The notes under the pieces are model-generated. The model saw nothing but the letters and a program-made list of their open reading frames with translations, searched no databases and was not told where the DNA came from. The position numbers were made by a program, and so were the translations under genes. Shown here piece after piece: positions 11,109 through 60,325 of a stretch of 60,325 nucleotides of DNA. This DNA is from an uncultured Candidatus Saccharibacteria bacterium (lineage in GTDB: Bacteria > Patescibacteriota > CPR2 > UBA1875 > CAIMLA01). The stretch covers positions 1 through 60,325 of the forward strand of contig CAZXMN010000003.1 in the NCBI GenBank assembly GCA_964641375.1, read 5' to 3'. The number at the start of each line of letters is the position of its first letter. Within the stretch, counting starts at the first letter, position 1.

Positions 11109-11669
11109 ATGTACGGAATAAACGATCTCAAAAACGGAACGACTTTCGAGCTTGATGGTCAGCCTTTCGTTGTCCTGGATTACCAGCACTCCAAACAGGG
11201 ACGAAGCGGTGCCGTTTTGCGTACGAAAATCAAAAACTTGATTACTGGCGCAATCGTCCAGAGAACTTTCTCTGGTAGTGAAAAGTTCAGTGAAGTGCAG
11301 ATAGACCGTAAAAAGGTCCAATATCTCTATGCCGATAGCGATCATTATTATTTCATGGATCAGAATGATTACAGCCAGTTTGATTTGCCGGCTGAAGAAC
11401 TTGGTAATAGTATTCACTATCTCAAGGATGGCGAAGTCGTCCAATTCCAGTTTTACGGCGATAAACCAATCAACCTCGATTTGCCTGTAAAAATGGATTT
11501 TTTGGTTACGGAAGCTGGTGAAGGTCTGAAGGGCGATACTGCTAGTGGCTCAACAAAGGTAGTCACTATCGAAACTGGACTCAAAGTGAACGTACCACTC
11601 TTTATTAAAGAAGGTGAAAAAATTCGCATTAATACGACCGACGGCAGCTATGTCGAACGAGCAAAATAA
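11109..11669 (+). CDS. efp: Elongation factor P
   Basis: DLKNG, HSKQGRSGA loop (Arg at the modified position), KGDTA, VPLFIKEGEKIRINT. Confidence 0.97.
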   Translation: MYGINDLKNGTTFELDGQPFVVLDYQHSKQGRSGAVLRTKIKNLITGAIVQRTFSGSEKFSEVQIDRKKVQYLYADSDHYYFMDQNDYSQFDLPAEELGNSIHYLKDGEVVQFQFYGDKPINLDLPVKMDFLVTEAGEGLKGDTASGSTKVVTIETGLKVNVPLFIKEGEKIRINTTDGSYVERAK

Positions 11670-12387
11670 AAAGCGTTTAGACCAGATACTAGTTGATAGG
11701 GGTCTAGCTGAGAGTAAAACAAAAGCCCAGGCTCTTATTATGGCTGGACAGGTCACAGTCGATGGTCGGATTTCAGATAAATCAGGAAAATCTATTCCTG
11801 ATGGTGCTGAAGTTATTGTCCGAGAAGCTTTTCCCTATGTTTCCAGGGGAGCACTCAAACTCGAGAAAGCATTTACTGAGTTTGGGATTGGTTTTGAAGG
11901 GAAAATAATCTGTGATATTGGTTCATCCACTGGGGGTTTTACAGATTTTGCACTGCAGCACGGGGCAGCGAAAGTGTTCGCCGTTGACGTTGGTACGGGA
12001 CAACTAGCTCAGAAGATACGAGAAGATAAACGGGTAGTGGTGATGGAGCGGACGGACTTTCGTGATATTACTTTACCTGAGTCAATTGACATATTCGTCT
12101 GCGATGTATCGTTCATCTCACTAAAGAAAATTATTCCGAAGGTCAAAACACTTATCACAAAACCAGCTGAAATTATTTTGCTCATAAAACCTCAGTTTGA
12201 AGCTGGAGTGAAGGAAGTCTCAAAGGGTAAAGGTGTAATTCGCGACGAAGCCTTGAGGACTGAAATTGTCGAGGAAATAACAGTATTTGCTAAATGTGAA
12301 GGTTTTGAAGTCAATGGACTTACAGAATCTCCAATTACGGGCGCAAAAGGTAACGTAGAATATCTACTATACTTGACAGGGGTTTAA
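11650..12387 (+). CDS. tlyA: TlyA family rRNA methyltransferase
   Basis: S4 domain RLDQILVDRG, YVSRGALKL, DIGSSTGGFT, DVSFISL, LIKPQFE, GAKGNVEY; start moved to ATG 11650. Confidence 0.95.
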   Translation: MSNEQNKKRLDQILVDRGLAESKTKAQALIMAGQVTVDGRISDKSGKSIPDGAEVIVREAFPYVSRGALKLEKAFTEFGIGFEGKIICDIGSSTGGFTDFALQHGAAKVFAVDVGTGQLAQKIREDKRVVVMERTDFRDITLPESIDIFVCDVSFISLKKIIPKVKTLITKPAEIILLIKPQFEAGVKEVSKGKGVIRDEALRTEIVEEITVFAKCEGFEVNGLTESPITGAKGNVEYLLYLTGV

Positions 12388-21400: not shown

Positions 21401-22753
21401 CTCTCGAATGCAGTTACTGCAGAAACATCAAATTTACCAACACTTACTACTACTGGCTTCAACATCACCCCGGGCACAGTCACAACTACTACATCAACAG
21501 CAGAGATCAATTGGACCACAAACCTTGATGCTTCATCTGCCTTTATTGAGTATCAGCTGCAAACTCAGCCAGGTGATGATCCTCAGGGTGGTACTTCTGG
21601 AGTTGATCCGAGTGTCTTAGCCTTAAATCCTCAGAAGCATCAGGTTGTCATCAAAGGTCTTCGTTCTAATAGAACCTATACCTACAAAATTAAATCAATC
21701 TCAATGGATGGCTATCTAGCCGAGAATCCAATTGGTTCATTCTCAAATTTCAAGACCAGAAACTTCGACTCAGCCCAGTTCTCGCTGGCTCCAGCCTCTT
21801 CGAATGTCGCCGATCGTAACATTACCTCAACCACGGCTCAAATTATCTGGCAAACAGCCACTGAGACTACCTCTTGGGTTGATTATGGTACAGTTTCTGG
21901 TGTCTATGGTATCTCCTCTGGCGATGACAATCTGACCACAACTCATCTAGTCACACTAGAAGGCTTGGTCCCTGGTACTACCTATTACTATCACGTCCGC
22001 GTGAAGGACGCTAATGAAGTCGAATTTACTTCACAAGAATATTCATTCACCGCTGTCATCAAACCAAAGATTTCTAACCTTCAGGTTAAGAATGTGACTC
22101 CATATTCCATCACCATTGCTTGGGATACTAATGTTGATACTGAAACTGTCCTAAATTGGGGTAAAACAGCTAGTTATGGCACGAAAGAAGGTACTTCTGA
22201 TGTCTCTCAAGTCCACCAAGTAACCGTCGATAATCTCGACGACAATACTGAATATCACTATCAGATTGTGGCTCATGATGCGGTCGGGAACGAAGTTGTC
22301 GGCAGTGACGGTATTGTGAGAACTCCACTTGATACCGAAGGGCCGAAAGTTACTAACGTCAAACTGGATGTCCTTCCTATGGGTGAAAGTGACACGACAG
22401 CCTCTATTATCGTCTCCTGGCAGACTAACAAACCTTCAACTACTTTAGTCCAATATGACGAAGGTGTAGTTGGTGGAACTTATAGCAAGAGTTCTGTACT
22501 CGATACCACTTTAAACAACTCCCATACCGTTATTATTAAAGATCTTGCTCCTGCCAGCTCATATCATTATCGTCTAGTTTCAGCAGACAAACGTAACAAC
22601 ACTACGACGACCCAAGATTACACCTTCGTAACTCCAACAAAGGAACAATCTATTCTTCAGTTGATTCTGAAGTCATTTGAGGATACCTTCGCCTGGACCG
22701 GTAACATGAATCAATTCTTCGGCAATGTTGGCAAGAGGCTAACAGGGAAATAA
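12419..22753 (+). CDS. Giant (3444 aa) surface protein: N-terminal TM/signal, 21 RCC1-like repeats, Ig-like and FN3/PAP-N-like repeats
   Basis: GTG start after gaggg; hydrophobic segment ending NKAYA; repeats GAVFAWGxNxxGQLGDNTTTQRNTPVQVLGVGGTGNLTGITAIAAG; HTLYYYxKDxAGNAE-type Ig repeats; five (I/V)xWxT...Y/WG repeats at the C-terminus. Confidence 0.92.
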   Translation: MKRRHVNTKRRMGTVGGLSLNGFLNVLKNGLKTVKKNYVQVNLAWLSAGYFFHLWIRMLHDKTYEKVPVYKKYSDAPISSTVHKTVMWAFVASFTFFTLFQYVLPNIFPANKAYASSNTKTWTTNADFANNKSSICGALTSDGNVTVNPSYNDPSCAQNESDGSATLSFGYQKLTGITKIAVSAVSSDVVALRGSDGAVFTWGDNTYGQLGDNTTTSRNTPVQVLGVGGSGNLTSITAIASGSSYSLALRSSDGAVFAWGLNSSGQLGDNTTTQRNTPVQVLGVGGSGNLTGITAIAAGDHTVALRGSDGAVFDWGTNGSGQLGDNTTTQRNTPVQVLGVGGTGNLTGITAIASGSSFSLAARGSDGAVFAWGTNSSGQLGDNTTTQRNTPVQVLGVGGSGNLTGITAVAAGYSHAVGLRGSDGAVFAWGYNNVGQLGDNTSIQRKTPVQVLGVGGTGNLTGITAIAAGYYHTVALRGSDGAVFDWGNNAYGSLGDNTSSQRNTPIQVLGVGGTGNLTGITSIAAGDYQTAVVRGSDKTVFAWGYNNVGQLGINSSDSNSHATPVQTVAPASIGTLTGITKISAKYQHVLAIRGSDGAVFAWGLNGQGQLGDGTTTARNYPVQVRYGLGYLTGITEISAGGSNSGYSSTDFGSSFAIRGSDGAVFSWGNMSGTYVPVQVAGVGGNGYLTGITKIVSSGFHTLAIRGSDGAVFAWGQNTYGQLGDNTTTQRSTPVQVLGVGGTGNLTGITSIDCSAYDPSVYYYASSYAVRGSDGAVFAWGYNGSGQLGDNTTIQRNTPVQVLGVGGTGNLFGMTTVSSNATSALVLRGSDGALFGWGTNSSGQLGDNTTTQRNTPVQVLGVGGTGNLTGIAAVSAGWGHTVALRGSDGAVFAWGSNYQGQLGDNTTTQRNTPVQVLGVGGTGNLTGMTMIQGGSFYSLALRNSDGAVFAWGYNNYGQLGVDTASQINTPVHTSTRSLSIDNNTYQYSGSVDGYIIDTGAGSKAYWNTVSWNATTPTNTSVKFNVRTSDNGTSWSSWSSDLVTPGGSAITASQSRYLDIQYTLSSDGTATSTLNDFSLNYNSVEAPINTNTTIYKSDGSTPLKSSAGSILSAGAAGGYTNESSVKIKTTSLSCSGCGTFTNPYTQVEYKPVGIAFTGTTNLINGAVDSGNQSTATITGLSSGTSYHFQMRTLDAQGRQSGWTSYGTTPEDVNEADITVDTTKPTVVVTINGGAQFTPQNATINVVAADAGGSNLGKLYFSNDGSNWTDVTPASGFTGQSSYSGNVPWTLTGGDGTKSVYTKIADNAGNTNADNKTWTTNADFSYNKASICGSIINNGNAAVSPSYTDPTCAANTADGTVTLTFGPQNLTGITAISAEWSHTIAVRGSDGAVFAWGSNGSGQLGDNTTTQRNIPVQVLGVGGTGYLTGITAVSAGGSYSLALRGSDGAVFSWGDNGWSQLGNNSVGGSTRTPAQVVGVGGSGYLTGITSISAGSEHSLALRGSDGAIFAWGRNAAGQLGDNTTTQRNAPVQVVGVGGSGFLTGNSMVSSGFDPNGNGYDYSLSVRSSDGAVFAWGYNGYGELGDNTTTQRNAPVQVKGLGGIGNLVGIAAVATGSSHSIALRSSDSAVFAWGNNNYGQLGDNTVTQRNVPIQVLGVGGSGNLVGITAISAGKDGSSLALRGSDGALFDWGYNGYGQLGINSSDSNSHAVPIQVLGVGGSGNLTGMTTITSGGDYSVARRSSDGAVFAWGYNSYGNLGDNTTSQRNVPVQTISVPVIYNTLGTISGYKLDAGVGAKQKWGNISWNSVALPAGTSIKFQARTSDDGVIWSDPSWGNTGATQSTTGSTTGSLDNSSLVGSRYFDVQVTLATTNNLVTPTLNDFTLGSTYGYASAIIDSSPPNDISTILGYSQSGGTALTSNNWYGYNVNGSKPFFSWTAPSDNGLAGVYGYCVYWGTAGITDPGTGCTTANAQTATNFSNNQTLVSGSTYYLNVKAIDNAGNASSTSAQFIYKYDNVAPTTTLNVSPSTPSGDNSWYKIGKPVVSFSAADSGSKTNKIYYRFDTDAAPYTQLSNTNGDDPYIQTLDASNLPEGTHTLYWYADDVSGNAETHHSQQFKIDVQAPTTGYAISPTSPNGDNGWYVTNAPVITLAPTDPNSGNNSGVASTYYQWDSNSGTWSTYTSTLTVSQGAHTLYYYTKDTAGNAEGQQQQTINFNAFVPNAPSGFRAPASDPNTDSTHIQLYWNSVSGTAPTVAYQTRRILATGTWGVNEVVVNHGSSDISYLDSTGLQPGLRYKYEIRTQDNSGLWGSWSDPIDGLTTDSLSPTPVVGVLTTACDGTTGNIPTTSVPVCSNTANKGFEIALTWTPSNDYGVGMSRYLIYRSTTNSIDPADWQIVGTLDATSVLTNPVYYDNDTNNDATFGTDKPVATDRLNDSTTYFYRVTALDLSPTGNPTGLIPLNPFDNLNTATTPDITAPTVPTNVVASPMGLDSSGSHQRIHLTWTASIDYKARSEEVVPGTITYKIFEATTEGGSYTQVATTTSLTTDLNGKDEFTDYYYQINASDASPAHNESAHSTDAHVHTASNSVPTTPTEVNVTAATGNPNTDSSVGHQITVTFFGSLAKNCDKLANVRCLTKYEVYRSTTNYADDASWTANATKIAEVAPTKIDDDRKKNDADQPHSVTDTGQTFPATSGTGLTDATTYYYKVMAIDNTPVTPDGGPFHSPMSTIAYPGSLHIGWDNTPDATAPALPSNVIIHDIHGDGVSYLRNIISWSRIPDPNRNGINDFKEYRIYRSVDGLFWQQICTKGLESSGCSVNDPNPLYNVDQNMAMGNNYYIDPISSDPQIANQMYYYYVTSADNASTTYKYPTPNGNLVVNAVTNESKPPRDSNNKITNAVSLNPATTQPSICDIGTDPCTVTAGGQKADLTNIGVATATINWTTDQPADSMVEFRKAGTDDAYKQIGDGDSSRNLGMVTSHSVDLFGLQPSTSYQYIIVSRNFLSNAVTAETSNLPTLTTTGFNITPGTVTTTTSTAEINWTTNLDASSAFIEYQLQTQPGDDPQGGTSGVDPSVLALNPQKHQVVIKGLRSNRTYTYKIKSISMDGYLAENPIGSFSNFKTRNFDSAQFSLAPASSNVADRNITSTTAQIIWQTATETTSWVDYGTVSGVYGISSGDDNLTTTHLVTLEGLVPGTTYYYHVRVKDANEVEFTSQEYSFTAVIKPKISNLQVKNVTPYSITIAWDTNVDTETVLNWGKTASYGTKEGTSDVSQVHQVTVDNLDDNTEYHYQIVAHDAVGNEVVGSDGIVRTPLDTEGPKVTNVKLDVLPMGESDTTASIIVSWQTNKPSTTLVQYDEGVVGGTYSKSSVLDTTLNNSHTVIIKDLAPASSYHYRLVSADKRNNTTTTQDYTFVTPTKEQSILQLILKSFEDTFAWTGNMNQFFGNVGKRLTGK
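12938..15335 (+). repeat. RCC1 repeat block 1: 14 units of about 57 aa
   Basis: 14 xxxFxWG units counted in the translation; 171-nt period between units at 14942 and 15113. Confidence 0.9.
16517..17722 (+). repeat. RCC1 repeat block 2: 7 units
   Basis: 7 xxxFxWG units counted in the translation. Confidence 0.9.
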
Positions 22754-29412: not shown

Positions 29413-31179
29413 ATGTTTGTAAAAGATGAAAAGAAGTTTGAAGAGACCCTAGAAAGTCTCCAATTGCTGAAGCCCGAGCAATTGGAAATGGTTCGAATAG
29501 AAAGTGCTAGGAGTGGTAAGGATTTTGAGTCTGTCATTCGTGATCTCAACATGATGGATCCCGAGCTCTTGATAAAGGCTAAGGCCATTTCAATGAACTT
29601 ACCATATATAGATCTCTCCAGTACACATGTTGATCAATCAATTCTAAATTTTTTTACGAAGGATTTGGCAGAAAAGTATATGGCGGTGCCTTTTGGTTTT
29701 ACTGGTGGCAATATCAGTGTGGCCATGACAGATCCGAATGATGTTCAGGTTATCGAATTTATCGAGAAGAAAAGTGGCTATCCTGTCTCACCGTATATGG
29801 CTTCGGAAAGTAGTATCAAGAAGGTTATCGAAGAATACCAAGATATTTCAGGAGAAGTTGGCGAGGCTTTGAAAGAAGTTGATCTCGGACCAAAGATTGA
29901 GATCAAAAATAGTGACGACTCGCAGAATCTGGCACAGGACGCGCCGGTTACCAGGGCTTTAAATACCATACTTGAGTACGCCGCCAAGTCACTTGCTTCA
30001 GACGTTCATATTGAACCGAGAGAGAAACAAATCAAAGTTCGTTATCGAATTGACGGCGTTTTGCATGATACCATGAATCTGCCTTCACATATTTTGCCGG
30101 CTCTCGTTTCTAGAATAAAAATTCTTTCAAATATGAAGATTGACGAACATCGCGTGCCTCAGGATGGACGTTTCGATATCAGTGTTGATGGCAGAGATAT
30201 CGATCTTCGTGTTTCTCTTTCGCCGACGGTTTATGGTGAAAAAGTCGTAATTCGTCTTCTCGACAAATCGGGAGGCGTCATCACCCTGGAGGATCTGGGT
30301 ATTAGGGGTCGTGCCTACAAAATAATCGAAGCTGGTACTAAACGTCCGCACGGGATGATTCTGGCGACTGGACCTACGGGCTCAGGTAAATCAACCACGT
30401 TATATGCACTTTTAACTAAGATGAATAAACCTGAAGTCAACATTATTACACTTGAGGATCCTGTAGAATACCAAGTGGATGGGGTCAATCAGATTCAGAT
30501 CAATACTCAAGTTGGATTGACGTTTGCTTCAGGTTTACGCTCAATTCTCCGTCAAGATCCAGATGTCATAATGGTTGGTGAGATTCGTGATGCTGAGACA
30601 GCGAGTTTGGCTGTGCAGTCGGCCTTGACAGGCCATACGGTACTTTCAACAATTCATACGAATAATGCTGCCGGTGTTTTGCCTAGGCTATTAGACATGG
30701 AGATTGAACCATTTTTAATTGCATCTACTGTCTCAACCGTTATTGGCCAGCGCTTAGTCAGGCGACTTTGTCCGAAATGTAAAGAAGCCTATAAAGCATC
30801 TCCAAGTCTAGTAGCTGCAATCAAGAAAGATTTAGCCGGACTTCTTCCGAATAAAAAAGATATTGATGCTAAGGAAAAATTTGAGAATGTCGGCTATGAT
30901 AAACTTCCATTCAACGATGATTTAGAATTCACTTTATACAAAGCAAAAGGTTGTGAAGCTTGTCGAAATACCGGGTATTCAGGACGTATTGGTATCTATG
31001 AGGTTTTCCCTGTATCGAATGTCATGGAAAAACTGTTGTTATCTCACGCAACCACCTCAGAGATTCAGGACGCGGCCGTCAAGGAAGGTATGATTACCAT
31101 GCGACAGGATGGGTTTTTGAAGGCTCTTACTGGAGTAACTTCCATCGAAGAAGTTGTTTCTAAGGCCTCAGAGTATTAG
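29413..31179 (+). CDS. pilB: Type IV pilus extension ATPase PilB (GspE/PulE family)
   Basis: ASDVHIEP, PQDGR, GPTGSGKST, TLEDPVEY, LRQDPD, tetracysteine CPKC...CEAC. Confidence 0.96.
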   Translation: MFVKDEKKFEETLESLQLLKPEQLEMVRIESARSGKDFESVIRDLNMMDPELLIKAKAISMNLPYIDLSSTHVDQSILNFFTKDLAEKYMAVPFGFTGGNISVAMTDPNDVQVIEFIEKKSGYPVSPYMASESSIKKVIEEYQDISGEVGEALKEVDLGPKIEIKNSDDSQNLAQDAPVTRALNTILEYAAKSLASDVHIEPREKQIKVRYRIDGVLHDTMNLPSHILPALVSRIKILSNMKIDEHRVPQDGRFDISVDGRDIDLRVSLSPTVYGEKVVIRLLDKSGGVITLEDLGIRGRAYKIIEAGTKRPHGMILATGPTGSGKSTTLYALLTKMNKPEVNIITLEDPVEYQVDGVNQIQINTQVGLTFASGLRSILRQDPDVIMVGEIRDAETASLAVQSALTGHTVLSTIHTNNAAGVLPRLLDMEIEPFLIASTVSTVIGQRLVRRLCPKCKEAYKASPSLVAAIKKDLAGLLPNKKDIDAKEKFENVGYDKLPFNDDLEFTLYKAKGCEACRNTGYSGRIGIYEVFPVSNVMEKLLLSHATTSEIQDAAVKEGMITMRQDGFLKALTGVTSIEEVVSKASEY

Positions 31180-31202
31180 AATAGTAGTATTGGAGGGTAT
31201 CA

Positions 31203-32267
31203 ATGGCAGAGCTTAAAATCGAAACATTACTCGAAGAGGTTGTAAAGAAGAATTCCTCTGATCTTCACTTGTCCGTCGGTGCTCCTCCGATGCTTCGTAT
31301 CGACGGTAGCCTTGTACCAGTGACGGGAGCTGAAGCTCTGACTGAAGATGATGTCGAGCAGCTTATCTACTCTGTTGTCGATGATGTACAGAAGGATATT
31401 TTACTCAAAGATAAGGAAGTCGATTTTTCCTTCGCTTTTGGTGACATTGCCCGTTTCCGTGCAAATGCGTTTCATCAGAAGGGGAATCTCGGGTTATCAC
31501 TCCGTTTGATACCCACGAAGCTTCGTTCGATTGCTGAACTTGGACTCCCAGAGTCTATAGAGAAGTTTACTTCTGTTCCCCGTGGACTAGTTCTCGTGAC
31601 TGGTCCTACTGGATCAGGTAAATCTACCACTCTTGCTGCTCTTATCGATAAGATAAACACCGAGAAAAGCGTACACATCATCACGATTGAAGATCCTATA
31701 GAGTATACTCATAATAATAAAAAATCTTTGATTGAACAGCGTGAAGTTCACTACGATACACGTTCTTTCGCGGCCGCTTTACGCAGTGCGCTTCGTGAGG
31801 ATCCGGATGTAGTGCTTATCGGTGAAATGCGTGATCTAGAGACTATTTCTGCCGCTATCACGATTGCAGAAACGGGTCACTTGGTTCTGGCGACACTCCA
31901 CACAAATAATGCAGCTCAGTCTATCGATCGTATGATTGATGTGTTTCCGCCATATCAGCAGCAACAGATTCGTGTTCAGCTTTCTAATATTCTACAAGGT
32001 GTCGTTTCACAGAGGCTCATCCCTTCCATTGGTGGTGGACGTGTAGCGGCGGCTGAAATTATGATTTCGACACCAGCTGTCCGTAATATTGTTCGCGAAG
32101 GTAAAACCCATCAACTTGATGCTGTCATTCAGACTGGCGCTGATCAGGGCATGATTCAAATGGACAAAGCCTTGGTTCAGTTGGTGAAAACCGGTCGCAT
32201 CACTGAGGACGAGGCCAAGGGTTATTGTATTGATACCGAGGAATTTTCGAGATTACTACATGGATAA
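31203..32267 (+). CDS. pilT: Type IV pilus retraction ATPase PilT
   Basis: SDLHLS, GPTGSGKST, LREDPD, ATLHTN, AVRNIVRE (AIRNLIRE motif). Confidence 0.96.
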   Translation: MAELKIETLLEEVVKKNSSDLHLSVGAPPMLRIDGSLVPVTGAEALTEDDVEQLIYSVVDDVQKDILLKDKEVDFSFAFGDIARFRANAFHQKGNLGLSLRLIPTKLRSIAELGLPESIEKFTSVPRGLVLVTGPTGSGKSTTLAALIDKINTEKSVHIITIEDPIEYTHNNKKSLIEQREVHYDTRSFAAALRSALREDPDVVLIGEMRDLETISAAITIAETGHLVLATLHTNNAAQSIDRMIDVFPPYQQQQIRVQLSNILQGVVSQRLIPSIGGGRVAAAEIMISTPAVRNIVREGKTHQLDAVIQTGADQGMIQMDKALVQLVKTGRITEDEAKGYCIDTEEFSRLLHG

Positions 32268-32273
32268 AACAAG

Positions 32274-33470
32274 ATGATAGAATACAACTATAAAGCGAAA
32301 ACAAAAGATGGGGACATTCAAACAGGTGTAGTCGAAGCGGAGAACGAATCCGCTGCGGCTAAGGTTCTAACTTCGAAGGATCTCTTTCCAATTCTAGTAA
32401 CGACTAGAGAATCACATTCATTCAATTTCTTGAAAAACGTACCAGTGAAACAGAAAGTGGTTTTTGTTCGTCAGCTAGCTACCACAATCACGGCTGGTTT
32501 GCCTATTGCTCAGGCTATTAATATGATCAAGGATCAAGTTTCAAATGAAAATTTGAAAAATATCTTGGTTCAAGTGGGCAGAGATATTGAAGGTGGTTCA
32601 TCTCTCTCGGCTTCACTTAATCGTTTTCCTGGGACTTTCTCCCAAGTCGATATAACTTTAATAGCAGCTGGGGAGACCAGTGGTTCCCTAGATAAAGTCC
32701 TGATGAGGCTTGCAGATACTACAGAAAGTGATTATCAAATTTCTAGAAAAATGAGAAGTGCCTTTATCTATCCGGGATTTGTACTGGCGGTTGTTATTGG
32801 GGTTGTGATACTGATGTCTGTGTATGTAATGCCACAAATGCAGGGGTTGTTTGATAGTTTTAATGCAAAGTTACCATTGGTAACTAGGATTGTTATAGGT
32901 ACTAGTAATGCTATTAATCATTACGGCCTAATGCTCGTAGCTATAATTGCCGCGATTGTTGGTGCTATCTATTGGTATGTTCGTACTCCGGATGGTCGTT
33001 TTTTGAAGGACAGACTTGTTATAAAAATACCAGTTATTGGGGGATTCCTTATCAAAGTCTATACTTCTAGACTGACCCATACACTAGCAGGACTGGTGGG
33101 TTCGGGCGTGTCTTTAGTCGATGCTTTAGCAATTTCCTCTCGGGCAATGGGTAATAAGGTTTATGAAAATTCGATAAAAGCTGCTAGTGAAAAAGTGAAA
33201 ACTGGCGTAGCCTTATCGGCTTATGTCAATCATGATCATCTATTTGACGCAATGGTACCGCAGATGATTAAAGTCGGCGAAGAAACTGGTGAGCTCGATA
33301 CTATGCTGACAAACCTAGCTAATTATTTTGACGAGGAAGTTGATAATTTTGTAAAAAGTTTATCTAGTATTATAGAGCCAGTTTTGATAGTTGTTATGGG
33401 TGTGTTTGTAGCAATAATCCTGGTAGCCATAATGTTGCCTATTTATAGCATCGGACAATATATCAAATAA
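32274..33470 (+). CDS. pilC: Type IV pilus platform protein PilC (GspF family)
   Basis: Two T2SSF repeats (AGETSGSLD, VGEETGELD...EP), three TMs. Confidence 0.95.
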   Translation: MIEYNYKAKTKDGDIQTGVVEAENESAAAKVLTSKDLFPILVTTRESHSFNFLKNVPVKQKVVFVRQLATTITAGLPIAQAINMIKDQVSNENLKNILVQVGRDIEGGSSLSASLNRFPGTFSQVDITLIAAGETSGSLDKVLMRLADTTESDYQISRKMRSAFIYPGFVLAVVIGVVILMSVYVMPQMQGLFDSFNAKLPLVTRIVIGTSNAINHYGLMLVAIIAAIVGAIYWYVRTPDGRFLKDRLVIKIPVIGGFLIKVYTSRLTHTLAGLVGSGVSLVDALAISSRAMGNKVYENSIKAASEKVKTGVALSAYVNHDHLFDAMVPQMIKVGEETGELDTMLTNLANYFDEEVDNFVKSLSSIIEPVLIVVMGVFVAIILVAIMLPIYSIGQYIK

Positions 33471-41258: not shown

Positions 41259-41720
41259 TTGTTACTGAAATACATTGAAGTTTTTCTACTTGCTGCTACG
41301 CCAATAATTGAGCTACGTGGAGCTTTGCCGGTAGCCATTCTCGGCTTCCATTTACAAATCTGGCAAGCGTATCTACTCTGCGTAATTGGTAGCTTTGCCC
41401 CAACCATAGTAATCGTTTATCTGCTTGGACCAGTTTCAGATTTCTTACGTAAATATATCAAGTTTTTTGAGTGGTTTTTCTCAAAATTATTCCAGTATGC
41501 TCGTGACAAGAATTCCAAGAAGATTGAAGCGCTCAAGGAATCGTCTGTTTTCATTATTGCAGCCCTGCCGATTCCGCTAGCCGGAGCTTGGAGCGCGGCT
41601 CTGGCCGCATTTGTCTTTGACATCCCACCGAGGAAGTCACTTCCGCTAATGTTTCTCGGTACCGCAGTCGCTGGTGGTATAGTATTATTACTAACATTAT
41701 CAGCAAAGGCAATTTTCTAA
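41259..41720 (+). CDS. Small multi-drug export family membrane protein (COG2426-like)
   Basis: PIIELRGALP...PIPLAGAWSAAL. Confidence 0.85.
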   Translation: MLLKYIEVFLLAATPIIELRGALPVAILGFHLQIWQAYLLCVIGSFAPTIVIVYLLGPVSDFLRKYIKFFEWFFSKLFQYARDKNSKKIEALKESSVFIIAALPIPLAGAWSAALAAFVFDIPPRKSLPLMFLGTAVAGGIVLLLTLSAKAIF

Positions 41721-42973
41721 TGCGAGAATATGAACTTACAAATGGGATTAAGGTCATTGAGGACCCGATTTCGGATGCTGCATCATTCACGATACTTGTG
41801 ATGTTCAAAACCGGTTCAAGGAACGAGACTCCCAATATTTGGGGTATTTCACATTTTCTGGAGCATATGGCTTTCAAGGGAACACCTAGCTATCCGAATG
41901 CGGCACTACTCGCCAAGGAACTAGACGGGCTTGGTGCTCTCTATAACGCCTTTACCTCGAAAGAATATACCGGCTATTTTATAAAAGGATCCAGAAAAAT
42001 CCTTCCTAAGGCAATAAGTATTATATCCGAAATGACACTTAGCCCAATCATTCTTGATGAAGAAGTCGACAAAGAACGTGGTACAATCGTCGAAGAAGTT
42101 CATATGTCAGAAGATGATCCAAGACGAAGGGTTTATGACCTTTTTGAAGAGTCGATTTATGAAAACAAACAAATTTCTCAAGATACGCTAGGAACAGAAG
42201 CCTCTCTCTCAGGTATTCACGCCAAAGAAATCATAGACTATAGAGAGAAATATTATCGTTCAGGTAATGCAGTTATCGCCGTCTCTGGATTTGTGCCTTC
42301 TGATTTAGAAGAAACTTTAGAAAAGTCTTTTTCTGCCATGTTGGAAGGAAAAAATAAGTACTTAACTTCTATTCTTGAAACCAGAAAGCAGATCAATATT
42401 ACCTACAAAGAGACTCAACAGACGCATCTGGCTATCGGCTTCCCAGGCGTAGACGTTCATAACAAAGACAGAGTAACTGCGCAAGTATTATCAATTTTAC
42501 TTGGTGGCAATATGAGTTCCCGTATGTTTAGTGAAGTTCGTGAAGAGCGTGGGCTCGCATATTATGTCAATACTTATAGTGATAATATGGATGATGCTGG
42601 TATCTTGGTGACCTTTGCTGGTGTAAATAATGAGAAAGCCCTGGAAGCCATCCGAATAATTCGTGATGTTTACAAAAGTGTTCTCACTGAGATACCAGAA
42701 GAAGAGATTCAAAAGACCAAAGATTACATTTCCGGTATGATTACTTTAAGTTATGAGGATAGTGAGAAACGTAGTGAGGTAAATGCTATTACCGAACTGT
42801 ACGGCGAACAGCAGAAAACACTCGAACAACGTCTTTCTGAGATTGAAGCCGTAACCACCGAAGAAGTCGTTGTCCTCGCAAATAAGTTGTTTAATGACAA
42901 GAAAATATGCTTGGCCCTCATCGGACCCTTCAAAGATGAGGCAGAGTTTGCTAAAATATTAGGGCTTAAATAG
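41720..42973 (+). CDS. M16 (pitrilysin) family zinc peptidase
   Basis: GSRNE, HFLEH inverted zincin motif, NAFTSKEYT, SSRMFSEVREERGLAY. Confidence 0.93.
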   Translation: MREYELTNGIKVIEDPISDAASFTILVMFKTGSRNETPNIWGISHFLEHMAFKGTPSYPNAALLAKELDGLGALYNAFTSKEYTGYFIKGSRKILPKAISIISEMTLSPIILDEEVDKERGTIVEEVHMSEDDPRRRVYDLFEESIYENKQISQDTLGTEASLSGIHAKEIIDYREKYYRSGNAVIAVSGFVPSDLEETLEKSFSAMLEGKNKYLTSILETRKQINITYKETQQTHLAIGFPGVDVHNKDRVTAQVLSILLGGNMSSRMFSEVREERGLAYYVNTYSDNMDDAGILVTFAGVNNEKALEAIRIIRDVYKSVLTEIPEEEIQKTKDYISGMITLSYEDSEKRSEVNAITELYGEQQKTLEQRLSEIEAVTTEEVVVLANKLFNDKKICLALIGPFKDEAEFAKILGLK

Positions 42974-55246: not shown

Positions 55247-55341
55247 GTCTGACATAGCCATTGTATCTTCAAACAAACTTTCGCCTTTGGAAGCACCCTA
55301 TATGATAAAATATATAGACCGCAAAAACTGAAATAGAAATT

Positions 55342-55746
55342 TTGGAGAACAAAATGACAAATCAAGAATTGGTTGAGATTGCAAAATCCGTCTCGTCCGA
55401 AAGTTTACCGACTCCTGCCGCAAAAATTGGTGGGGTTGGTTCGGCTCTGGTTTCTGAAAGTGGTCGAATCTACAAAGGAAAGAGTATCGATTGTTCCTGC
55501 GGCATTGGTTTTTGTGCTGAACATTCAGCCATTGCTGCTATGGTCACAGCGAATGAGAATAGAATCATGAAAATAGTTGCTGTTAACGAGGAAAGAGGCA
55601 TAGTACCACCTTGTGGCAGATGTCGTGAGTTAATAGCACAAATAAATTTTGCAAATTTAGCAACGCAGGTCATTCTGGAAAACGAGGTGGTTGAACTGCG
55701 AGAACTTCTGCCTCATTTTTGGCTGGAGAGGCATCTCATCAGGTAG
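55342..55746 (+). CDS. Cytidine deaminase-like zinc deaminase (three-Cys type)
   Basis: VGSAL, CAEHSAI, PPCGRCRE; alternative start ATG 55354. Confidence 0.9.
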   Translation: MENKMTNQELVEIAKSVSSESLPTPAAKIGGVGSALVSESGRIYKGKSIDCSCGIGFCAEHSAIAAMVTANENRIMKIVAVNEERGIVPPCGRCRELIAQINFANLATQVILENEVVELRELLPHFWLERHLIR

Positions 55747-55843
55747 CTATTTTTTATTGGAAGTTATTCTAGGAGAATCTTTCTTTATATAAAGTGAAAG
55801 CCGCCTCCCAGCGGACAATCACTTATCAAACAAATGATATAAC

Positions 55844-55871
55844 AAAAAATACCTTATTGCAGGTATTTTTT
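55844..55871. terminator. Bidirectional terminator
   Basis: aaaaaatacct-tattgc-aggtatttttt between convergent genes. Confidence 0.75.
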
Positions 55872-56289
55872 AGACCTTTAATTCCATTTTTACTAGATCT
55901 GCTATCTTCTGGTGAACATTTTTGTACGCGTCCCAGACAGACTGACACCAGGTGAATATGGCAGCGTCTCTTTCTGGCCCCGGTTGAGCCAACAGTACAT
56001 CTCTAGCGCTTATGTCTCCACGATACTCGGGCAGAACTATTTTTGGCCAAGTTTTTCGCTTCATTGCAAGCTCCATGTGGGCTAGTTGAGTCTGTCTACC
56101 GGTATAACCTTTTTCTAGACATAGGTATAGCCCAACCAAAGCGAAGACTATCTTTATTGGCTTTGTATCTTCGTTGGCATTTTGAGCCGCATAGGCATCG
56201 ACAATGTTCTGGTGGATGAAGGAAGGGTTCGGGTGCGCTAGCGTGTAGTACGCCAGCTGATGATATGCTTGATCTTCTGATTCTTCCAT
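55870..56289 (-). CDS. DUF5946 family protein
   Basis: FIHQNIVDAYAAQ...FALVGLYL.LEKG...QLAH...WCQSVW; start moved to 56289 (MEESEDQ). Confidence 0.75.
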   Translation of the reverse strand: MEESEDQAYHQLAYYTLAHPNPSFIHQNIVDAYAAQNANEDTKPIKIVFALVGLYLCLEKGYTGRQTQLAHMELAMKRKTWPKIVLPEYRGDISARDVLLAQPGPERDAAIFTWCQSVWDAYKNVHQKIADLVKMELKV

Positions 56290-56524
56290 GACTCCCTTAC
56301 TTAGTTCGCCAGTTAATTTCGAAGGAAATGGAAAATTTGTTAGGAATCTTCCATTTGGAAAATCGAAGGAAGAAAAACTGGAATTTATTCTCAGCGATTT
56401 TTCCAAAGCCGAATCTATTTAACGTTAGTTCGATATCTATAACCATAATATTTCCAATCTGACTAGATTCTAGCACAAAGTAGGCATATCCCTAAGGGTA
56501 TATAATTATATATAGAACTAAAAT

Positions 56525-56923
56525 ATGGAGAAACAGATGGCAAAAGGCGAGACAGAAGCAAATGCATGTACGGAAATTGACAAATTGATTGCTCTTCATC
56601 CTGACTGGCGCGGTAAGATGCTTGCGAAGGTTCGCAAGATCATTCTGGAGGCTGATTCTGAGATTCTCGAGCAGTGGAAATGGATGGGTTCACCGGTATG
56701 GGAAAAGAGCGGGATTATTTGTGTCGGAAATATTTTCAAGAACAAGGTTCAAATTGTTTTTAGAGACGGTGCAGCGCTCGAAGACCCCGACAAAATCTTT
56801 AATGCTGGCTTTGGCGGTAAGCAATGGCGAACTATCGATATTTTCGAGGGCGACGAAATCAACGAAACAGCGCTCAAGAATCTAGTTCGTGAGGCAATTA
56901 TTTACAATCAAGCAAAAAAATAG
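56525..56923 (+). CDS. DUF1801 (YdhG-like) protein
   Basis: WRGKMLAKVRKII..AD..I.E.WKWMGSPVW...F..GA.L.DP..IFN...R.IDI. Confidence 0.85.
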   Translation: MEKQMAKGETEANACTEIDKLIALHPDWRGKMLAKVRKIILEADSEILEQWKWMGSPVWEKSGIICVGNIFKNKVQIVFRDGAALEDPDKIFNAGFGGKQWRTIDIFEGDEINETALKNLVREAIIYNQAKK

Positions 56924-56936
56924 GAAGAAGAATAAA

Positions 56937-57269
56937 ATGGCAGAATCTATTAAACTTTTAGTCTATCCGGTGAAGGATTACGAAAAAGCCAAGGTTTTTT
57001 ACACCAAGTTTCTCGGAATCGAGCCCTACGTGGATAGCGAATACTATGTGGGCTACAAAGCTGGTGACTTGGAGATTGGGTTAGATTCACAAGCACAAGT
57101 CGGCCCTATTGCATATGTTGATGTAGAAGATATCAAGGCAAGCATCCAAGAAATGCTCACAGCTGGTGCCGAGCTAGTGCAAGATGCACATGAAGTCGGC
57201 GGCGGCTTGCTAGTCGCTCAGGTCAAGGATGCTGACGGCAACGTTGTTGGGTTCAGACAACAGTCCTAG
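56937..57269 (+). CDS. VOC/glyoxalase family protein
   Basis: YPVKDYEKAKVFY...YVDVEDI...DVGGG-type HEVGGG...KDADGNVVG; start moved to 56937. Confidence 0.88.
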   Translation: MAESIKLLVYPVKDYEKAKVFYTKFLGIEPYVDSEYYVGYKAGDLEIGLDSQAQVGPIAYVDVEDIKASIQEMLTAGAELVQDAHEVGGGLLVAQVKDADGNVVGFRQQS

Positions 57270-57514
57270 AACTTATTTATATGTGTGATTATTTTCCCAA
57301 TTGTTTTCCATATCCGCATGGTAATTTCTTTGCCGTATTCTTTTTCTAGTTGCCTCATTATTTGTGGTGTCCTTTTAATCTCTGGGTTAATCACGCTGGA
57401 GATTACCGTCTGAACATTGCTAAATCCCAATTCTTCAAAGAATTGCGTAAGTTTATCTCCGTGCATGTTGGGATTTTCAGGACCAACGCCCCTGATAAAT
57501 GCGACGTATTTCAT
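57266..57514 (-). pseudogene. DUF1697 family gene with a probable large in-frame internal deletion
   Basis: N-terminus MKYVAFIRG...LGFSNVQTVISS joined directly to a C-terminus like ...LEKEYGKEITMRIWKTIGKI; only 82 aa, GNV motif absent. Confidence 0.65.
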
Positions 57515-57522
57515 AATTATGA

Positions 57523-57978
57523 TTAAACAATTTTATTAATTAGATTTTTTGCCCAAGTTTTAGCTCTCTCAAGGTCTTTTTCGTTAGGATGTCCTTTTGC
57601 AAAGCCTCCAAAGGGCTTTGAAATTGGAGGATAAGTGTCAAAACCAAGGCACTCGAAAAAATCGATTATTTCAAACCCGGCATCTGTGAAAGTTTTTCTA
57701 AAATTGTTATGGAATTTATTGTAAAAAGCGTCAGGTCCACCGCTTGTGGCGATGATAAAACACCTTTTCTCATTATTGGTAAATAGTCTTTCGAAACCTA
57801 CGTGTGGCTTCGCAAAATAAACTCCACTGGCAAAACCTATCACGTCATAGTCGGCGAGCATTTCAGTCTTGGCCTTTGCGAGTGGAACTATCTCACAGTT
57901 AAGGACCTCGGCAACAGCCTTGACTACTTTTTCAGTATTCATGTGGTGAAATGATTGATAAATAATTACAGTTTTCAT
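57523..57978 (-). CDS. Flavodoxin family protein
   Basis: IIYQSFHHMNTEKV, YDVIGFASGVY, IATSG, CLGFDT...GHPNEKDL. Confidence 0.88.
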   Translation of the reverse strand: MKTVIIYQSFHHMNTEKVVKAVAEVLNCEIVPLAKAKTEMLADYDVIGFASGVYFAKPHVGFERLFTNNEKRCFIIATSGGPDAFYNKFHNNFRKTFTDAGFEIIDFFECLGFDTYPPISKPFGGFAKGHPNEKDLERAKTWAKNLINKIV

Positions 57979-58132
57979 GAATACAGTTTACCACAAAGAG
58001 TGCTGTTCTTTAGTTTCGTTTCTAGTTTTTCTTTGTTTGATATCCCTTGGTTTAAGTTTTCACGTTTTTCTAAGATCCAATGCACATATATTATATATAA
58101 GTATAGGTGTAGTAATTTTTTGTGATTTTAAG

Positions 58133-58296: not shown

Positions 58297-58464
58297 CTTT
58301 GTAAGTCGACCAGATTAACTGGCCTTCATTGAATTATTGGAACTGTTTAGTTCCATCATGCGTACTTTGGCGAAGCGGCGCGCGCCAAGGCCTTTTTAAG
58401 CACAGAACGAGACAAACGAGACACTAAATCCAAGATGTCATAAGCCCTCTTGTGGGTGCCTGTA

Positions 58465-58493
58465 TTGACTAAGTATTAGGAAAGTAATATAAT
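58465..58493 (+). promoter_or_regulatory. sigma70 promoter of the radical SAM cassette
   Basis: TTGACT-17 nt-TATAAT. Confidence 0.8.
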
Positions 58494-58519
58494 GCCGCCA
58501 AGCTAGGCCGCCAAGCTAG
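58494..58519 (+). repeat. 13-bp direct tandem duplication at the predicted transcription start
   Basis: gccgccaagctag twice. Confidence 0.9.
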
Positions 58520-58589
58520 TCCGCTCCCCACATCATGTGGGGGGTTCTGTATACACAAACTAGTTCGCACCTTGAAAGGGTGATTACCG

Positions 58590-59885
58590 ATGCTGTACCG
58601 TCAGCTAAGGGCTCCTATTAGTGCCCAGATTGAGCTAACAACGGAGTGCTCAAACAACTGTCCGCACTGCTACAACTATCAGCGGCAAGACGACGATCCC
58701 GATACCACAATGTCCGTTGAGCAACTGCGAACTACATTCGCAGCGCTCGGTCGGGCAGGCGTCTTCTCCACCATTATCACTGGTGGGGAACCTGGTCTAC
58801 GACCTTCTCTGGTTGTGGAAGGGATTCGCTTGTGCTCAGAACTGAACATTTCATGCTCCATCAACACTAATCTGACGACTCTGACTGAAGAGACGTTGGT
58901 TAAGATGGTGGAGGCGGGTAAGTTCACGGTTCTGACCTCAATCGCATCTTTCCAGGAGTCGGTCCATGACGCGATGATGGGAAGAAGCGGTGCTTTTCGC
59001 AGAACCGTGCGGGGAGTTGAACTTCTTAAGCAGTACGGGGTTCCGTTCTCGGCGAACATGGTTGTGGCTCAAGCAAACGCTGGTCAAGTGTATGAGACTG
59101 GACTGTTTGCACACTCCCTAGGTGCCAGGTCATTCTCAGCCACAAAGGCGTCACCGCCGCTTGGGTGCAACGACTACTCGAAGGTTCAGCCGACACGCGA
59201 TCAAGTCCGACAATCTCTCGATGATCTACTCCGACTCAACGAAGAGACGGGGATGCCGGTTGATATCCTAGAGTGCTACCCGCTCTGTTTCTTCGGAAAT
59301 GTCGAGAAGTACAAGAGGTTCACTCGGCATAAGTGCTCGGCAGCAATTTTCTCGAGCGCGATTGGGGCTGACGGTCTGGTACGGCCGTGCTCTCACTCGA
59401 ACCGTACCTACGGCAATGTCTTCACGGAAGATCTCGACGTAATCTTCTCTCGAATGCTAGAGTGGAGGAGTGGAGATCTGCTTCCGGAGCAGTGTCTCAA
59501 CTGTAACTACTTCAGCCAATGTTCTGGTGGTTGTCGTTGTGAAGCTGAGCATGCGGGAGACATCGCTGGGATGGATCCATATGCACTTGGAGAGTCGAGT
59601 GTGATTCCCCAAGCAAGCGAGGTATCTGTCGAGTTCGCAGTAGCTGATGAGACTCGCTTCGGTATTGACGCTTCCGTACGCTTCCGCAAGGAAGGATTCG
59701 GCTATGTCGTCAAGGGTCGGGCTTCCTTCGCCATAGTCGGTCCGGAGGCAGGCGACCTGCTCATGAAGCTGCAGATGTCCGGTATGACTCTAGCCGAAGC
59801 AAGTCGCTATTCTGGCTTTGACCCCGATCAAGTTCTCGCGGTGTTGAAGGGCCTGGTTTCAAAGAGGATAGTGAGTTTTGTATAG
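58590..59885 (+). CDS. Radical SAM/SPASM enzyme with probable C-terminal PqqD/RRE-like domain (putative RiPP maturase)
   Basis: CSNNCPHC (Cx3Cx2C), TGGEP, SPASM C-x12-G-x4-C and Cx2Cx5Cx3C, about 80-aa beta/helix C-terminal extension. Confidence 0.92.
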   Translation: MLYRQLRAPISAQIELTTECSNNCPHCYNYQRQDDDPDTTMSVEQLRTTFAALGRAGVFSTIITGGEPGLRPSLVVEGIRLCSELNISCSINTNLTTLTEETLVKMVEAGKFTVLTSIASFQESVHDAMMGRSGAFRRTVRGVELLKQYGVPFSANMVVAQANAGQVYETGLFAHSLGARSFSATKASPPLGCNDYSKVQPTRDQVRQSLDDLLRLNEETGMPVDILECYPLCFFGNVEKYKRFTRHKCSAAIFSSAIGADGLVRPCSHSNRTYGNVFTEDLDVIFSRMLEWRSGDLLPEQCLNCNYFSQCSGGCRCEAEHAGDIAGMDPYALGESSVIPQASEVSVEFAVADETRFGIDASVRFRKEGFGYVVKGRASFAIVGPEAGDLLMKLQMSGMTLAEASRYSGFDPDQVLAVLKGLVSKRIVSFV

Positions 59886-59953
59886 CTCACTGAAGGCCGC
59901 ACCTCGGTAATGTGTCTACCCCGCTTGTCTGGGAACAGGAAGGAGGAAACGGG

Positions 59954-60067
59954 ATGGAGCTTCTCGGCATCGTGAATGGCGCGTCCGTCGATTCGATGGC
60001 GTCCAGTTGCGAGTGTGACAGCCCCAACTGCGACAGCGGTTGCGACTCCGACAACGACAACGACTAG
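59954..60067 (+). CDS. Putative RiPP precursor peptide, 37 aa, Cys/Asp-rich (not in ORF track)
   Basis: AGGAGG (59941-59946) 7 nt before the ATG; MELLGIVNGASVDSMASSCECDSPNCDSGCDSDNDND*; directly after the radical SAM gene and before a strong terminator. Confidence 0.85.
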   Translation: MELLGIVNGASVDSMASSCECDSPNCDSGCDSDNDND

Positions 60068-60101
60068 AAACCGGCGACACGAAGGACGTCGGTAGCACTG
60101 G

Positions 60102-60143
60102 GACCCGGTGCCCCTTTGGGGGTACCGGGTCTTTTCGTTTTTT
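60102..60143 (+). terminator. Strong intrinsic terminator closing the radical SAM-precursor operon
   Basis: 13-bp stem gacccggtgcccc-tttg-ggggtaccgggtc followed by ttttcgtttttt. Confidence 0.9.
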
Positions 60144-60325
60144 ACATAGCGGAACTATGAGATGTGGTGAGTGTGGCTCATTTATTATTGGTGAACGGAA
60201 GTTCAAGACTCTCAGAAAGTCCGGCAAAAAGACTATGTATATTTACTATCTTTGCTCAAAGTATTCACATCGGGAATGTAAGCAGCTTCCTATAAACGAG
60301 CAAGCTTTAATACCTCAACTTGTTA
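60139..60325 (+). pseudogene. 5'-truncated large serine recombinase fragment (zinc beta-ribbon), runs off the window
   Basis: FLHSGTMRCGECGSFIIGERKFKTLRKSGKKTMYIYYLCSKYSHRECKQLPINEQALIPQLV matches the CxxCG...YYxC...C...I.E pattern; no catalytic domain upstream in this frame. Confidence 0.75.

Follow-up and report, generated by a model that had tools for sequence, protein, structure and literature searches.

An apparently undescribed, putative radical SAM/SPASM peptide-modification cassette from Saccharibacteria and its Patescibacteria-centred family

Gene organization of the locus

The DNA analysed here, referred to as the window, comprises 60,325 nt from an uncultured Candidatus Saccharibacteria bacterium (GenBank assembly GCA_964641375.1, contig CAZXMN010000003.1, positions 1 to 60,325 of the forward strand). 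The RuvB encoded there likewise places the host in Saccharibacteria (Patescibacteria), at 86% and 79% identity to the proteins of two uncultured Candidatus Saccharibacteria metagenome-assembled genomes. Near its 3' end lies a two-gene cassette on the plus strand, in which an open reading frame (ORF) for a 431-aa radical S-adenosylmethionine (SAM)/SPASM peptide maturase (58590..59885) is followed by the gene for a 37-aa Cys-rich precursor peptide, MELLGIVNGASVDSMASSCECDSPNCDSGCDSDNDND (59954..60067). The peptide contains 4 Cys and 9 Asp/Glu, 7 of the latter in the core, and divides into a leader, MELLGIVNGASVDSMAS(S), and a core, (S)CECDSPNCDSGCDSDNDND. The enzyme was characterized by Pfam and NCBIfam scans, an AlphaFold2 (AF2) model, Foldseek and profile searches, and the peptide by homologous peptides at the same position in related genomes; Pfam and NCBIfam scans of the peptide itself gave no match at all. 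An enzyme bearing a RiPP recognition element (RRE; RiPP, a peptide made on the ribosome and then modified post-translationally) is genetically coupled to a leader-plus-core peptide, and the pair is probably a bicistronic RiPP module of a large, Patescibacteria-centred family, consisting of a maturase and its precursor, for which we propose a thioether-forming mechanism.

The cassette has its own expression signals. A sigma-70-like promoter (58465..58493, +) consists of TTGACT (58465-58470), a 17-nt spacer and TATAAT (58488-58493), matching the consensus at 11 of 12 positions. A scan at a looser threshold found promoter-like sites no more often than in shuffled sequence (2 found, 2.8 expected), and the promoter is therefore called from the quality of this site and from its position. 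GC content begins to rise at this point. It is not homologous to the promoters of related loci; by blastn, homology to the relatives labelled L087, L089 and L002 extends only from 58563, 27 nt before the enzyme ATG, to about 60065, at the peptide stop. The peptide gene is preceded by a perfect AGGAGG Shine-Dalgarno sequence (59941..59946, +) 7 nt before its ATG, and in a DNA alignment of the window with L087, L089 and L002 the AAGGAGG, the spacing and the ATG are all invariant. An intrinsic terminator (60100..60143, +), with a stem of 15 pairs (60100-60133), a loop of 4 and a T run, closes the unit. The consensus promoter, the 431-aa radical SAM gene, the perfect ribosome-binding site (RBS) and the 37-aa ORF, including its span and the 4 Cys and 7 Asp/Glu of its core, had all been proposed in a first-pass annotation and are borne out here; the strong terminator was also recognized there, with a stem given as 13 rather than 15 bp. 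In the relatives, too, GC-rich sequence that looks hairpin-like by eye lies after the peptide gene, ahead of a HExxH gene.

The 5' leader of about 90 nt (58494..58589, +) begins with a tandem repeat, GCCGCCAAGCTAG x2 (58494-58519, +), at the likely transcription start. A GC-rich hairpin (58523-58545, +) follows and is present in both the minimum free energy and the centroid structures, with an overall z-score for the leader of only -0.95. The conserved motif GTTCGCACCTTGAAAGGGTGATTACCG (58563-58589, +) includes the weak Shine-Dalgarno sequence of the enzyme gene, and ACCTTGAAAGG, just before the enzyme ATG, is invariant in the window, L001, L002, L087, L089 and L209/L210. Upstream of ACCTTGAAAGG each subclade member has an inverted repeat whose sequence differs from member to member (judged by eye and folded for the window only). 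The 190 nt upstream in L089 and L002 are about 90% alike, as estimated by eye from the alignment, though the coding sequences are about 73% identical. An RBS-sequestering hairpin considered within the conserved ACCUUGAAAGGG motif was dropped: where L089, L002 and L209 have A in place of G, one of its pairs is lost and there is no covariation. The 5' leader gave no Rfam match at E<=10 and therefore does not correspond to a known riboswitch; over the whole window, Rfam detected only 4 tRNAs at the gathering threshold.

The radical SAM/SPASM enzyme and its C-terminal domain

The enzyme matches Pfam Radical_SAM at 1.2e-25, and both Radical_SAM and SPASM are present in 40 of 40 aligned homologues; the enzymes of the closest relatives are 61-63% identical to it. 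The CX3CX2C motif of the SAM cluster (C20, C24 and C27) is invariant across the family, and the AF2 model (pLDDT, the predicted local distance difference test, 92.6) matches radical SAM structures with their TIM-barrel core. Seven further invariant cysteines belong to the SPASM region (residues 233-317): C249-X12-G262-X4-C267 (CX12GX4C) and C302-X2-C305-X5-C311-X3-C315 (CX2CX5CX3C), with C233 upstream. The first-pass description of a full set of SPASM cysteines is thus slightly generous: it holds for these seven, but not for the canonical last SPASM Cys, which is not conserved in the family (residues 302-332, nt 59493-59585). Asp329 is invariant and the pair Asp329-Pro330 is invariant or nearly so, in a segment that aligns with ...TDPAC of PqqE. 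The unconserved last Cys together with Asp329 suggests that one auxiliary cluster may have a non-Cys ligand or an open site.

The nearest solved structures by Foldseek are SkfB, SuiB, anSME, PqqE and TigE, each at about 20% identity, with SkfB as the best match (4.2e-17). SkfB also leads when the family profile is compared with solved structures (3.7e-30, followed by PqqE at 3.6e-22 and SuiB at 3e-21), and to PqqE the enzyme aligns over residues 6-336, which take in almost the entire catalytic part and the GDxxxxDP segment beyond the SPASM motif. No NCBIfam model was matched above its cut-off, and all 25 matches listed for the enzyme fall far below. NirJ2 and AhbD score highest (94 and 91 bits against cut-offs of 500), followed among the best matches by GeoRSP and SynChlorMet ScmE/F (86 and 82 bits; cut-offs 400 bits). 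The cofactor maturases PqqE and MftC reach 85.5 of 381 and 81.9 of 265 bits, respectively, while the thioether models reach 51.8 of 340 (PapB, NF047865), 74.9 of 850 (AlbA), 53.8 of 300 (SkfB) and 53.2 of 625 (StsB). The SCIFF maturase model is absent among these 25 matches.

The C-terminal ~90 residues are predicted to be an RRE with the winged-helix fold typified by PqqD (residues ~355-431, nt 59652-59882, +). Modelled alone with AF2 (pLDDT 91.8), the domain has four strands (E16-43) followed by three helices (H45-84). Its best match in the PDB by Foldseek is PqqD (5sxy; E 4.3e-04, template modelling score 0.67), and nearly all of its top 50 matches are RREs, including those of ThcOx, MccB, TigE, PbtF, McbBCD, TruD, TbtB, lasso-peptide B1 proteins, SuiB, MibB and LynD. 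At the sequence level detection is weak: Pfam PqqD is found in 1 of 40 members at E 0.23, a PDB profile search returned only weak winged helix-turn-helix matches, and HMMER aligns residues 356-417 weakly to the N-terminal RRE of SuiB. The assignment was therefore decided by fold comparison. Since the RRE of SuiB is N-terminal, as is that of CteB, and the RRE here is C-terminal, the domain order of the enzyme is permuted relative to SuiB.

Precursor peptides across the family

A pattern and tblastn scan of species-representative genomes, with one genome per species, identified 315 family loci. A strict rule, which asks for a same-strand downstream ORF of 20-90 aa with four or more Cys among the last 25 residues, picks out such an ORF in 47 of 73 related loci. 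In controls, the same rule picks one out in 2/73 cases on the antisense strand, 1/66 and 0/66 upstream, 1/60 and 0/60 at a distance of 2 kb, and 0-3/73 in shuffled sequence. By a looser count, 58 of 77 loci have a small Cys-rich ORF immediately 3' of the enzyme gene in the same orientation. As a class, the Cys-rich small ORF is a real peptide gene, far beyond chance. The first-pass proposal of a radical SAM/SPASM maturase paired with a leader-plus-core precursor is upheld by this linkage and by the RRE domain in the enzyme, and the doubt raised there, that homologous enzymes might lack neighbouring peptides, is answered by the same counts.

Homologous peptides occupy the same position in L087 (MKLVGIMDDTHAGSVTACVSPGCECDSPNCDSGCDSDNDSD, ending in ...CECDSPNCDSGCDSDNDSD), L089 (MELVSIMDGAPVGSISAGCDCDHDNCDSGCDYDNDPA; MELVSIMDG...CDCDHDNCDSGCDYDNDPA) and L209 (MELLGILAGNSAASASSCEGIDCDSGCNCDCFDSGSCNEPD), and also in L002. 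In the closest relatives the core is nearly identical (CECDSPNCDSGCDSDND). Across the relatives the leader keeps a hydrophobic motif near its N-terminus (LGIV, LSIVE, GYVSLL, GFETIL, GFVSFV), and family cores are highly variable in length, pattern and number of Cys, for example NCDCYDCDYNCEECD, ACYCNCGCACHVTG and GCDNSGCNVCQSGCHGG. In the syntenic trio L089, L002 and L209, indels separate the cores, and the leaders resemble one another. A constant leader joined to a variable core, encoded next to the enzyme, is the usual pattern of RiPP precursors. Cysteine is the only core residue shared family-wide, most often spaced as CxC (101), then CxxC (62) and CxxxC (34), and Asp directly follows Cys in 40% of cases; in one branch of the family (ACYCNCGCACHVTG) the cores have no acidic residue at all.

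Two side observations concern unusual members. The loci L063 and L068 come from bins named as an archaeon or Nanoarchaeota (DPANN), for which contamination is possible; with TTTATATA or CTTATATA some 25-30 nt upstream of the ATG and no Shine-Dalgarno sequence, they show an archaeal-type promoter architecture, and their peptides end in ...DCHDTCDSCDCHGCDCYYD and ...NCDCDCNCDCDATCDFYD. In L019 (6071-6355) and three further loci, a conserved 94-aa protein with proline-cysteine repeats (...PPCVGKPPPPCVGKPPPPCYGAPPCVGVPPCFNTCYGG) is encoded downstream, +724 to +742 after the radical SAM stop. The protein occurs where a Cys/Asp peptide is lacking, and it may represent a different class of precursor.

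The HExxH gene and the boundaries of the cassette

Clustering of neighbouring ORFs showed that the only widely conserved neighbours of the family are HExxH proteins, which form several sequence clusters and are mostly ~190-340 aa long; no transporter or exporter is conserved near the cassettes by the same analysis. Of 76 loci, 62 have a HExxH gene within 1.2 kb, in most cases as the next gene after that of the peptide, and 14 have none nearby. One HExxH cluster matches Pfam Peptidase_MA_2 at 6.6e-12, and the cluster found beside the closest relatives of the window has no Pfam or NCBIfam match. All of the closest relatives examined (L001, L002, L087, L089, L209 and L212, the last an AT-rich family member) have the HExxH gene 266-340 nt after the enzyme stop. 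In the window and its contig extensions of 1.3-2.3 kb, tblastn with 72 such proteins did not find one. The window therefore has the first two features of a three-gene Patescibacteria cassette, a radical SAM/SPASM-RRE enzyme and a Cys-rich peptide, while the third was not found nearby. The cassette had been described as self-contained and minimal, which is only partly right, as the normal cassette of the family includes the HExxH gene. The suggestion that an M16 peptidase might act as a host enzyme for the pathway found no support, as nothing ties the distant M16 peptidase gene of the window (41720-42973) to the cassette.

Directly 3' of the terminator, and outside the cassette, is an N-terminally truncated large serine recombinase (60157..60325, +, continuing on contig L081 at 11568-11984). 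On the full contig this remnant is 138 aa long, begins at the Zn-ribbon (MRCGECGS...) and retains only the Zn-ribbon and the C-terminal part; residues 1-53 match positions 6-51 of Pfam Zn_ribbon_recom at 1.6e-06. Because the HExxH gene is missing and a truncated recombinase adjoins, we regard the window copy as a derived, reduced version of the family cassette. Together with the limits of the blastn homology, this arrangement points to a reduced and relocated module, comprising the motif of the 5' untranslated region, the enzyme and the peptide, under a promoter of its own. The exact enzyme sequence is present on 16 metagenome contigs, and the cassette DNA is identical on the six that were compared, each from a different metagenome sample. 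Beyond the recombinase, gene content differs by strain, L081 having a VRR-NUC-like gene and L083 one for an OLD/AriA/GajA-like ATPase, which suggests that the region 3' of the cassette is a variable mobile or defence region. Carriage by phages was rejected, the search of IMG/VR giving one marginal match (24% identity over 94 aa).

Proposed mechanism and alternative explanations

We propose that transcription from the single promoter would yield an mRNA carrying the maturase gene, with its weak conserved RBS region, and the 37-aa precursor gene, with its perfect AGGAGG, up to the terminator. The hydrophobic N-terminal leader (MELLGIV...) would be bound by the enzyme's own C-terminal RRE, and the Cys/Asp-rich core (SCECDSPNCDSGCDSDNDND) would be presented to the radical SAM active site and the SPASM iron-sulfur clusters. 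There, a 5'-deoxyadenosyl radical would abstract hydrogen from an acceptor carbon, and a Cys sulfur would close an intramolecular thioether, up to four times and with a change of -2 Da each; the acceptors would probably be carbons of neighbouring Asp, Asn or Ser. In the normal three-gene cassette, the adjacent cytoplasmic HExxH protein presumably removes the leader. By analogy with characterized enzymes, Cys thioether cross-links are the most likely chemistry, because Cys is the only universal core residue, because SkfB is the best sequence match, and because the Asp/Glu/Asn neighbours are the acceptors described for PapB-type enzymes (PMC9413430, PMC12373016).

Several points weigh against this interpretation. 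Every curated model of a thioether maturase (PapB, AlbA, SkfB) has a cut-off far above the score of the enzyme, and the closest folds include enzymes of other chemistries, as C-C bonds are formed by SuiB and PqqE and Cys is oxidised by anSME. A link from Cys to Asp cannot be the general rule, since one family branch has cores without acidic residues. For these reasons the first-pass label of a ranthipeptide- or sactipeptide-like pathway is plausible as to chemistry but does not extend to membership in any curated thioether family. We infer leader binding by the RRE, thioether formation, the action of a peptidase and what the product does biologically from genes and models, and in the subclade of the window the putative peptidase role is read from the HExxH motif. 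With no peptidase beside it, the product here may retain the leader; alternatively, the module may already be decaying. Furthermore, the contigs carrying the cassette are near-identical and so give no evidence of purifying selection within the population.

The same enzyme-peptide pair could instead perform another chemistry, such as formation of a C-C or C-O cross-link, epimerisation, or conversion of Cys to a formylglycine-like or other oxidised species, with the remaining Cys and carboxylates binding metal to give a small metallophore or metallothionein-like product. We hold this to be a real but lesser possibility. Its case rests on the structural and profile neighbours, which include SuiB, PqqE, anSME and TigE at about 20% identity each, on the PqqE profile alignment over residues 6-336, and on Cys as the only residue that all cores share; CxC and CxxC spacings with Asp are a metal-binding composition, and no exporter is conserved near the cassette. 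To our knowledge, however, all characterized radical SAM/SPASM enzymes that act on multi-Cys cores with adjacent acidic residues form thioethers, among them QhpD, CteB and the SCIFF maturases. PapB is described as such an enzyme (PMC9413430, PMC12373016), one that links Cys to Asp/Glu (PMC9413430). The top sequence match, SkfB, is likewise a thioether-forming enzyme. A product that serves as a peptide-derived cofactor or other housekeeping molecule, in the manner of pyrroloquinoline quinone (PQQ) or mycofactocin, rather than as a secreted natural product, seems quite improbable. The best NCBIfam and PDB matches do include PqqE and the maturase of mycofactocin, the family cassette combines a dedicated peptidase with the lack of a transporter as those pathways do, and the hosts are metabolically reduced; but the precursors of such cofactors have strictly conserved cores, and here even close relatives in synteny differ in core length and in the number and spacing of Cys. 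It is this hypervariability that argues against a cofactor role, along with the patchy distribution of the cassette, which sometimes occurs twice per genome (L011 and L015, both JAKAHO01), and the absence of conserved downstream tailoring genes. Membership in the PQQ or mycofactocin systems themselves was rejected on the scores below cut-off, the hypervariable cores and the lack of conserved neighbours other than HExxH genes.

That the window copy is a non-functional two-gene remnant of a rearrangement that removed the peptidase is suggested by the presence of the HExxH gene in all closest relatives examined and not here, by the truncated recombinase at the junction and by the difference in the downstream region between strains (L081 and L083). 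We nevertheless regard it as rather unlikely: both ORFs are intact with all family-invariant residues present, the module has its own strong promoter, perfect RBS and terminator, the enzyme is found on 16 contigs with identical DNA in the six samples compared, and 14 of 76 other loci also have no nearby HExxH gene. Hardly any weight attaches to the possibility that there is no RiPP system, the small ORF being fortuitous and the radical SAM protein an enzyme that acts on its own in metabolism or against viruses (heme/NirJ-like or viperin-like). NirJ2 and AhbD do give the best NCBIfam scores, but these matches cover only the generic radical SAM core and lie far below 500 bits; the PADLOC models for pVip do match, over residues 14-165, and the assignment to prokaryotic viperins or a defence system was rejected on the limited extent of this match and the presence of SPASM and RRE domains. 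The linkage of Cys-rich ORFs (47/73 against 0-3 in controls), the RRE fold and the conservation of peptide DNA, RBS and spacing in relatives effectively refute the stand-alone reading.

Comparison with known peptide-modifying systems

One close analogy is with the ranthipeptide systems (PapB/PapA of freyrasin, CteB/CteA and SCIFF), in which a radical SAM/SPASM enzyme with an RRE likewise acts on a short multi-Cys precursor. The window system differs from them in having CxC and CxxC spacing rather than a regular CX3D, a C-terminal RRE, a HExxH gene in the family and Patescibacteria hosts, and also in that the enzyme scores below the PapB cut-off, the 25 listed matches include no SCIFF maturase model, and no precursor model was matched. 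With PapA it shares potential Asp/Glu acceptors, and the expected chemistry would be a thioether from Cys sulfur to a non-alpha carbon, as described for that system (PMC9413430, PMC12373016). The sactipeptide enzymes SkfB and AlbA also combine a radical SAM core, an auxiliary cluster domain and an RRE, and both form Cys thioethers; they stand apart by the identity of about 20%, the scores below NCBIfam cut-offs and the permuted domain order. In addition, SkfB has a twitch-type auxiliary domain, whereas the window enzyme has a full-length SPASM motif, the unconserved last Cys apart.

PqqE/PqqD and MftC/MftB resemble the window system in that a radical SAM/SPASM enzyme and a PqqD-type RRE act on a small acidic peptide, and in that the pathway includes a peptidase but lacks an exporter. 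Here, in contrast, the RRE is fused C-terminally, the cores are Cys-rich and hypervariable rather than built on a fixed Glu/Tyr or Val-Tyr motif, and no other pathway genes are present. The uncharacterized Haft-type cassettes GeoRSP and SynChlorMet (ScmE/F) are, like this one, bioinformatically defined pairings of radical SAM/SPASM enzymes with small peptides, but the scores are far below their cut-offs, and precursors and taxa differ.

GC content of the cassette

The cassette stretch has a GC content of ~0.52-0.55, compared with ~0.35-0.42 on both sides, and falls again to ~0.35 from 60157. At third codon positions (GC3), the enzyme and peptide genes reach 0.56-0.63 against 0.28-0.40 for host genes, in the window at 58430-60143 as well as in L087, L089, L002 and L209. 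Synteny connects L089, L002 and L209, whose flanks have diverged to the same degree as the enzyme gene (64-78% nucleotide identity), and the HExxH gene beside the GC-rich pair has a host-like GC3 of 0.32 in L089 and L002; its region in L209 has a host-like GC of 0.34. Horizontal transfer followed by amelioration fails to explain this pattern, since the enrichment persists in syntenic, vertically related genomes next to a host-like HExxH gene. Separately, a 60%-identical family member was observed in a GC-rich genome (L211, the contig carrying P0008; flanks 0.59-0.62), where it lies between two further radical SAM genes. A screen of ATG-start ORFs in L211 showed no obvious Cys-rich peptide. L211 may represent the kind of donor lineage from which GC-rich copies came.

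Distribution and significance of the family

Among the best 80 of the 315 loci, most are named as Patescibacteria, Saccharibacteria, Parcubacteria, Paceibacterota, WWE3 and similar groups. A phmmer search of 1.84 billion cluster representatives (50% identity clusters) recovered 434 clusters at E<=1e-30, the best 150 of which consist almost entirely of full-length proteins of 430-450 aa. Peptide natural-product pathways had been considered unexpected in such reduced genomes; given a family centred on Patescibacteria, this expectation does not hold, and the cassette is characteristic of reduced genomes of the Candidate Phyla Radiation (CPR), not foreign to them. Biosynthetic gene clusters are usually said to be almost absent from CPR/Patescibacteria, and a deadwood survey states that its Patescibacteria metagenome-assembled genomes contained none (PMC11613949). 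The widespread radical SAM cassette points the other way. A compendium of radical SAM RiPPs with 15,000 members does not mention Patescibacteria. A literature search of limited coverage found no description of a family combining a radical SAM/SPASM-RRE enzyme, a Cys-rich peptide and a HExxH protein. The cassette is thus apparently an undescribed radical SAM/SPASM RiPP system in which the RRE is permuted, with a precursor family and a putative peptidase that are particular to it.

More speculatively, and with doubt on our part, the family could be a distinct RiPP class that marks ultra-small episymbionts as a lineage trait (in CPR, and with copies in archaeal bins named as DPANN), producing very compact poly-bridged Cys/Asp peptides with a domain-permuted radical SAM/SPASM-RRE enzyme; the products may act in interaction with the host or in the uptake of metals, rather than in classical antibiosis, and in one Saccharimonadales lineage the enzyme and peptide genes would be kept GC-rich by some constraint. 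If the products are cross-linked Cys/Asp peptides, they would form a new family of scaffolds, made by organisms whose way of life is attachment to other microbes. A small enzyme that carries its own RRE and tolerates very different cores is also attractive for peptide engineering, and the system is directly testable by co-expression of two or three genes.

Other genes of the window

The genes upstream of the cassette (55300-58000) are small accessory genes, encoding a cytidine deaminase, DUF5946, DUF1801, a glyoxalase-like protein, a DUF1697 fragment and a flavodoxin-like protein. The nearest relatives of the flavodoxin-like gene (31-46% identity) are in Firmicutes and Archaea, not in Saccharibacteria; with no close relative of this gene in Saccharibacteria genomes, an empty site was not found by way of it. 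Two further features of the window are not linked to the cassette: a single ORF of 3444 aa at 12419-22753 (+), and genes for the ATPase and platform proteins of a type IV pilus or type II secretion system at 29413-33470.

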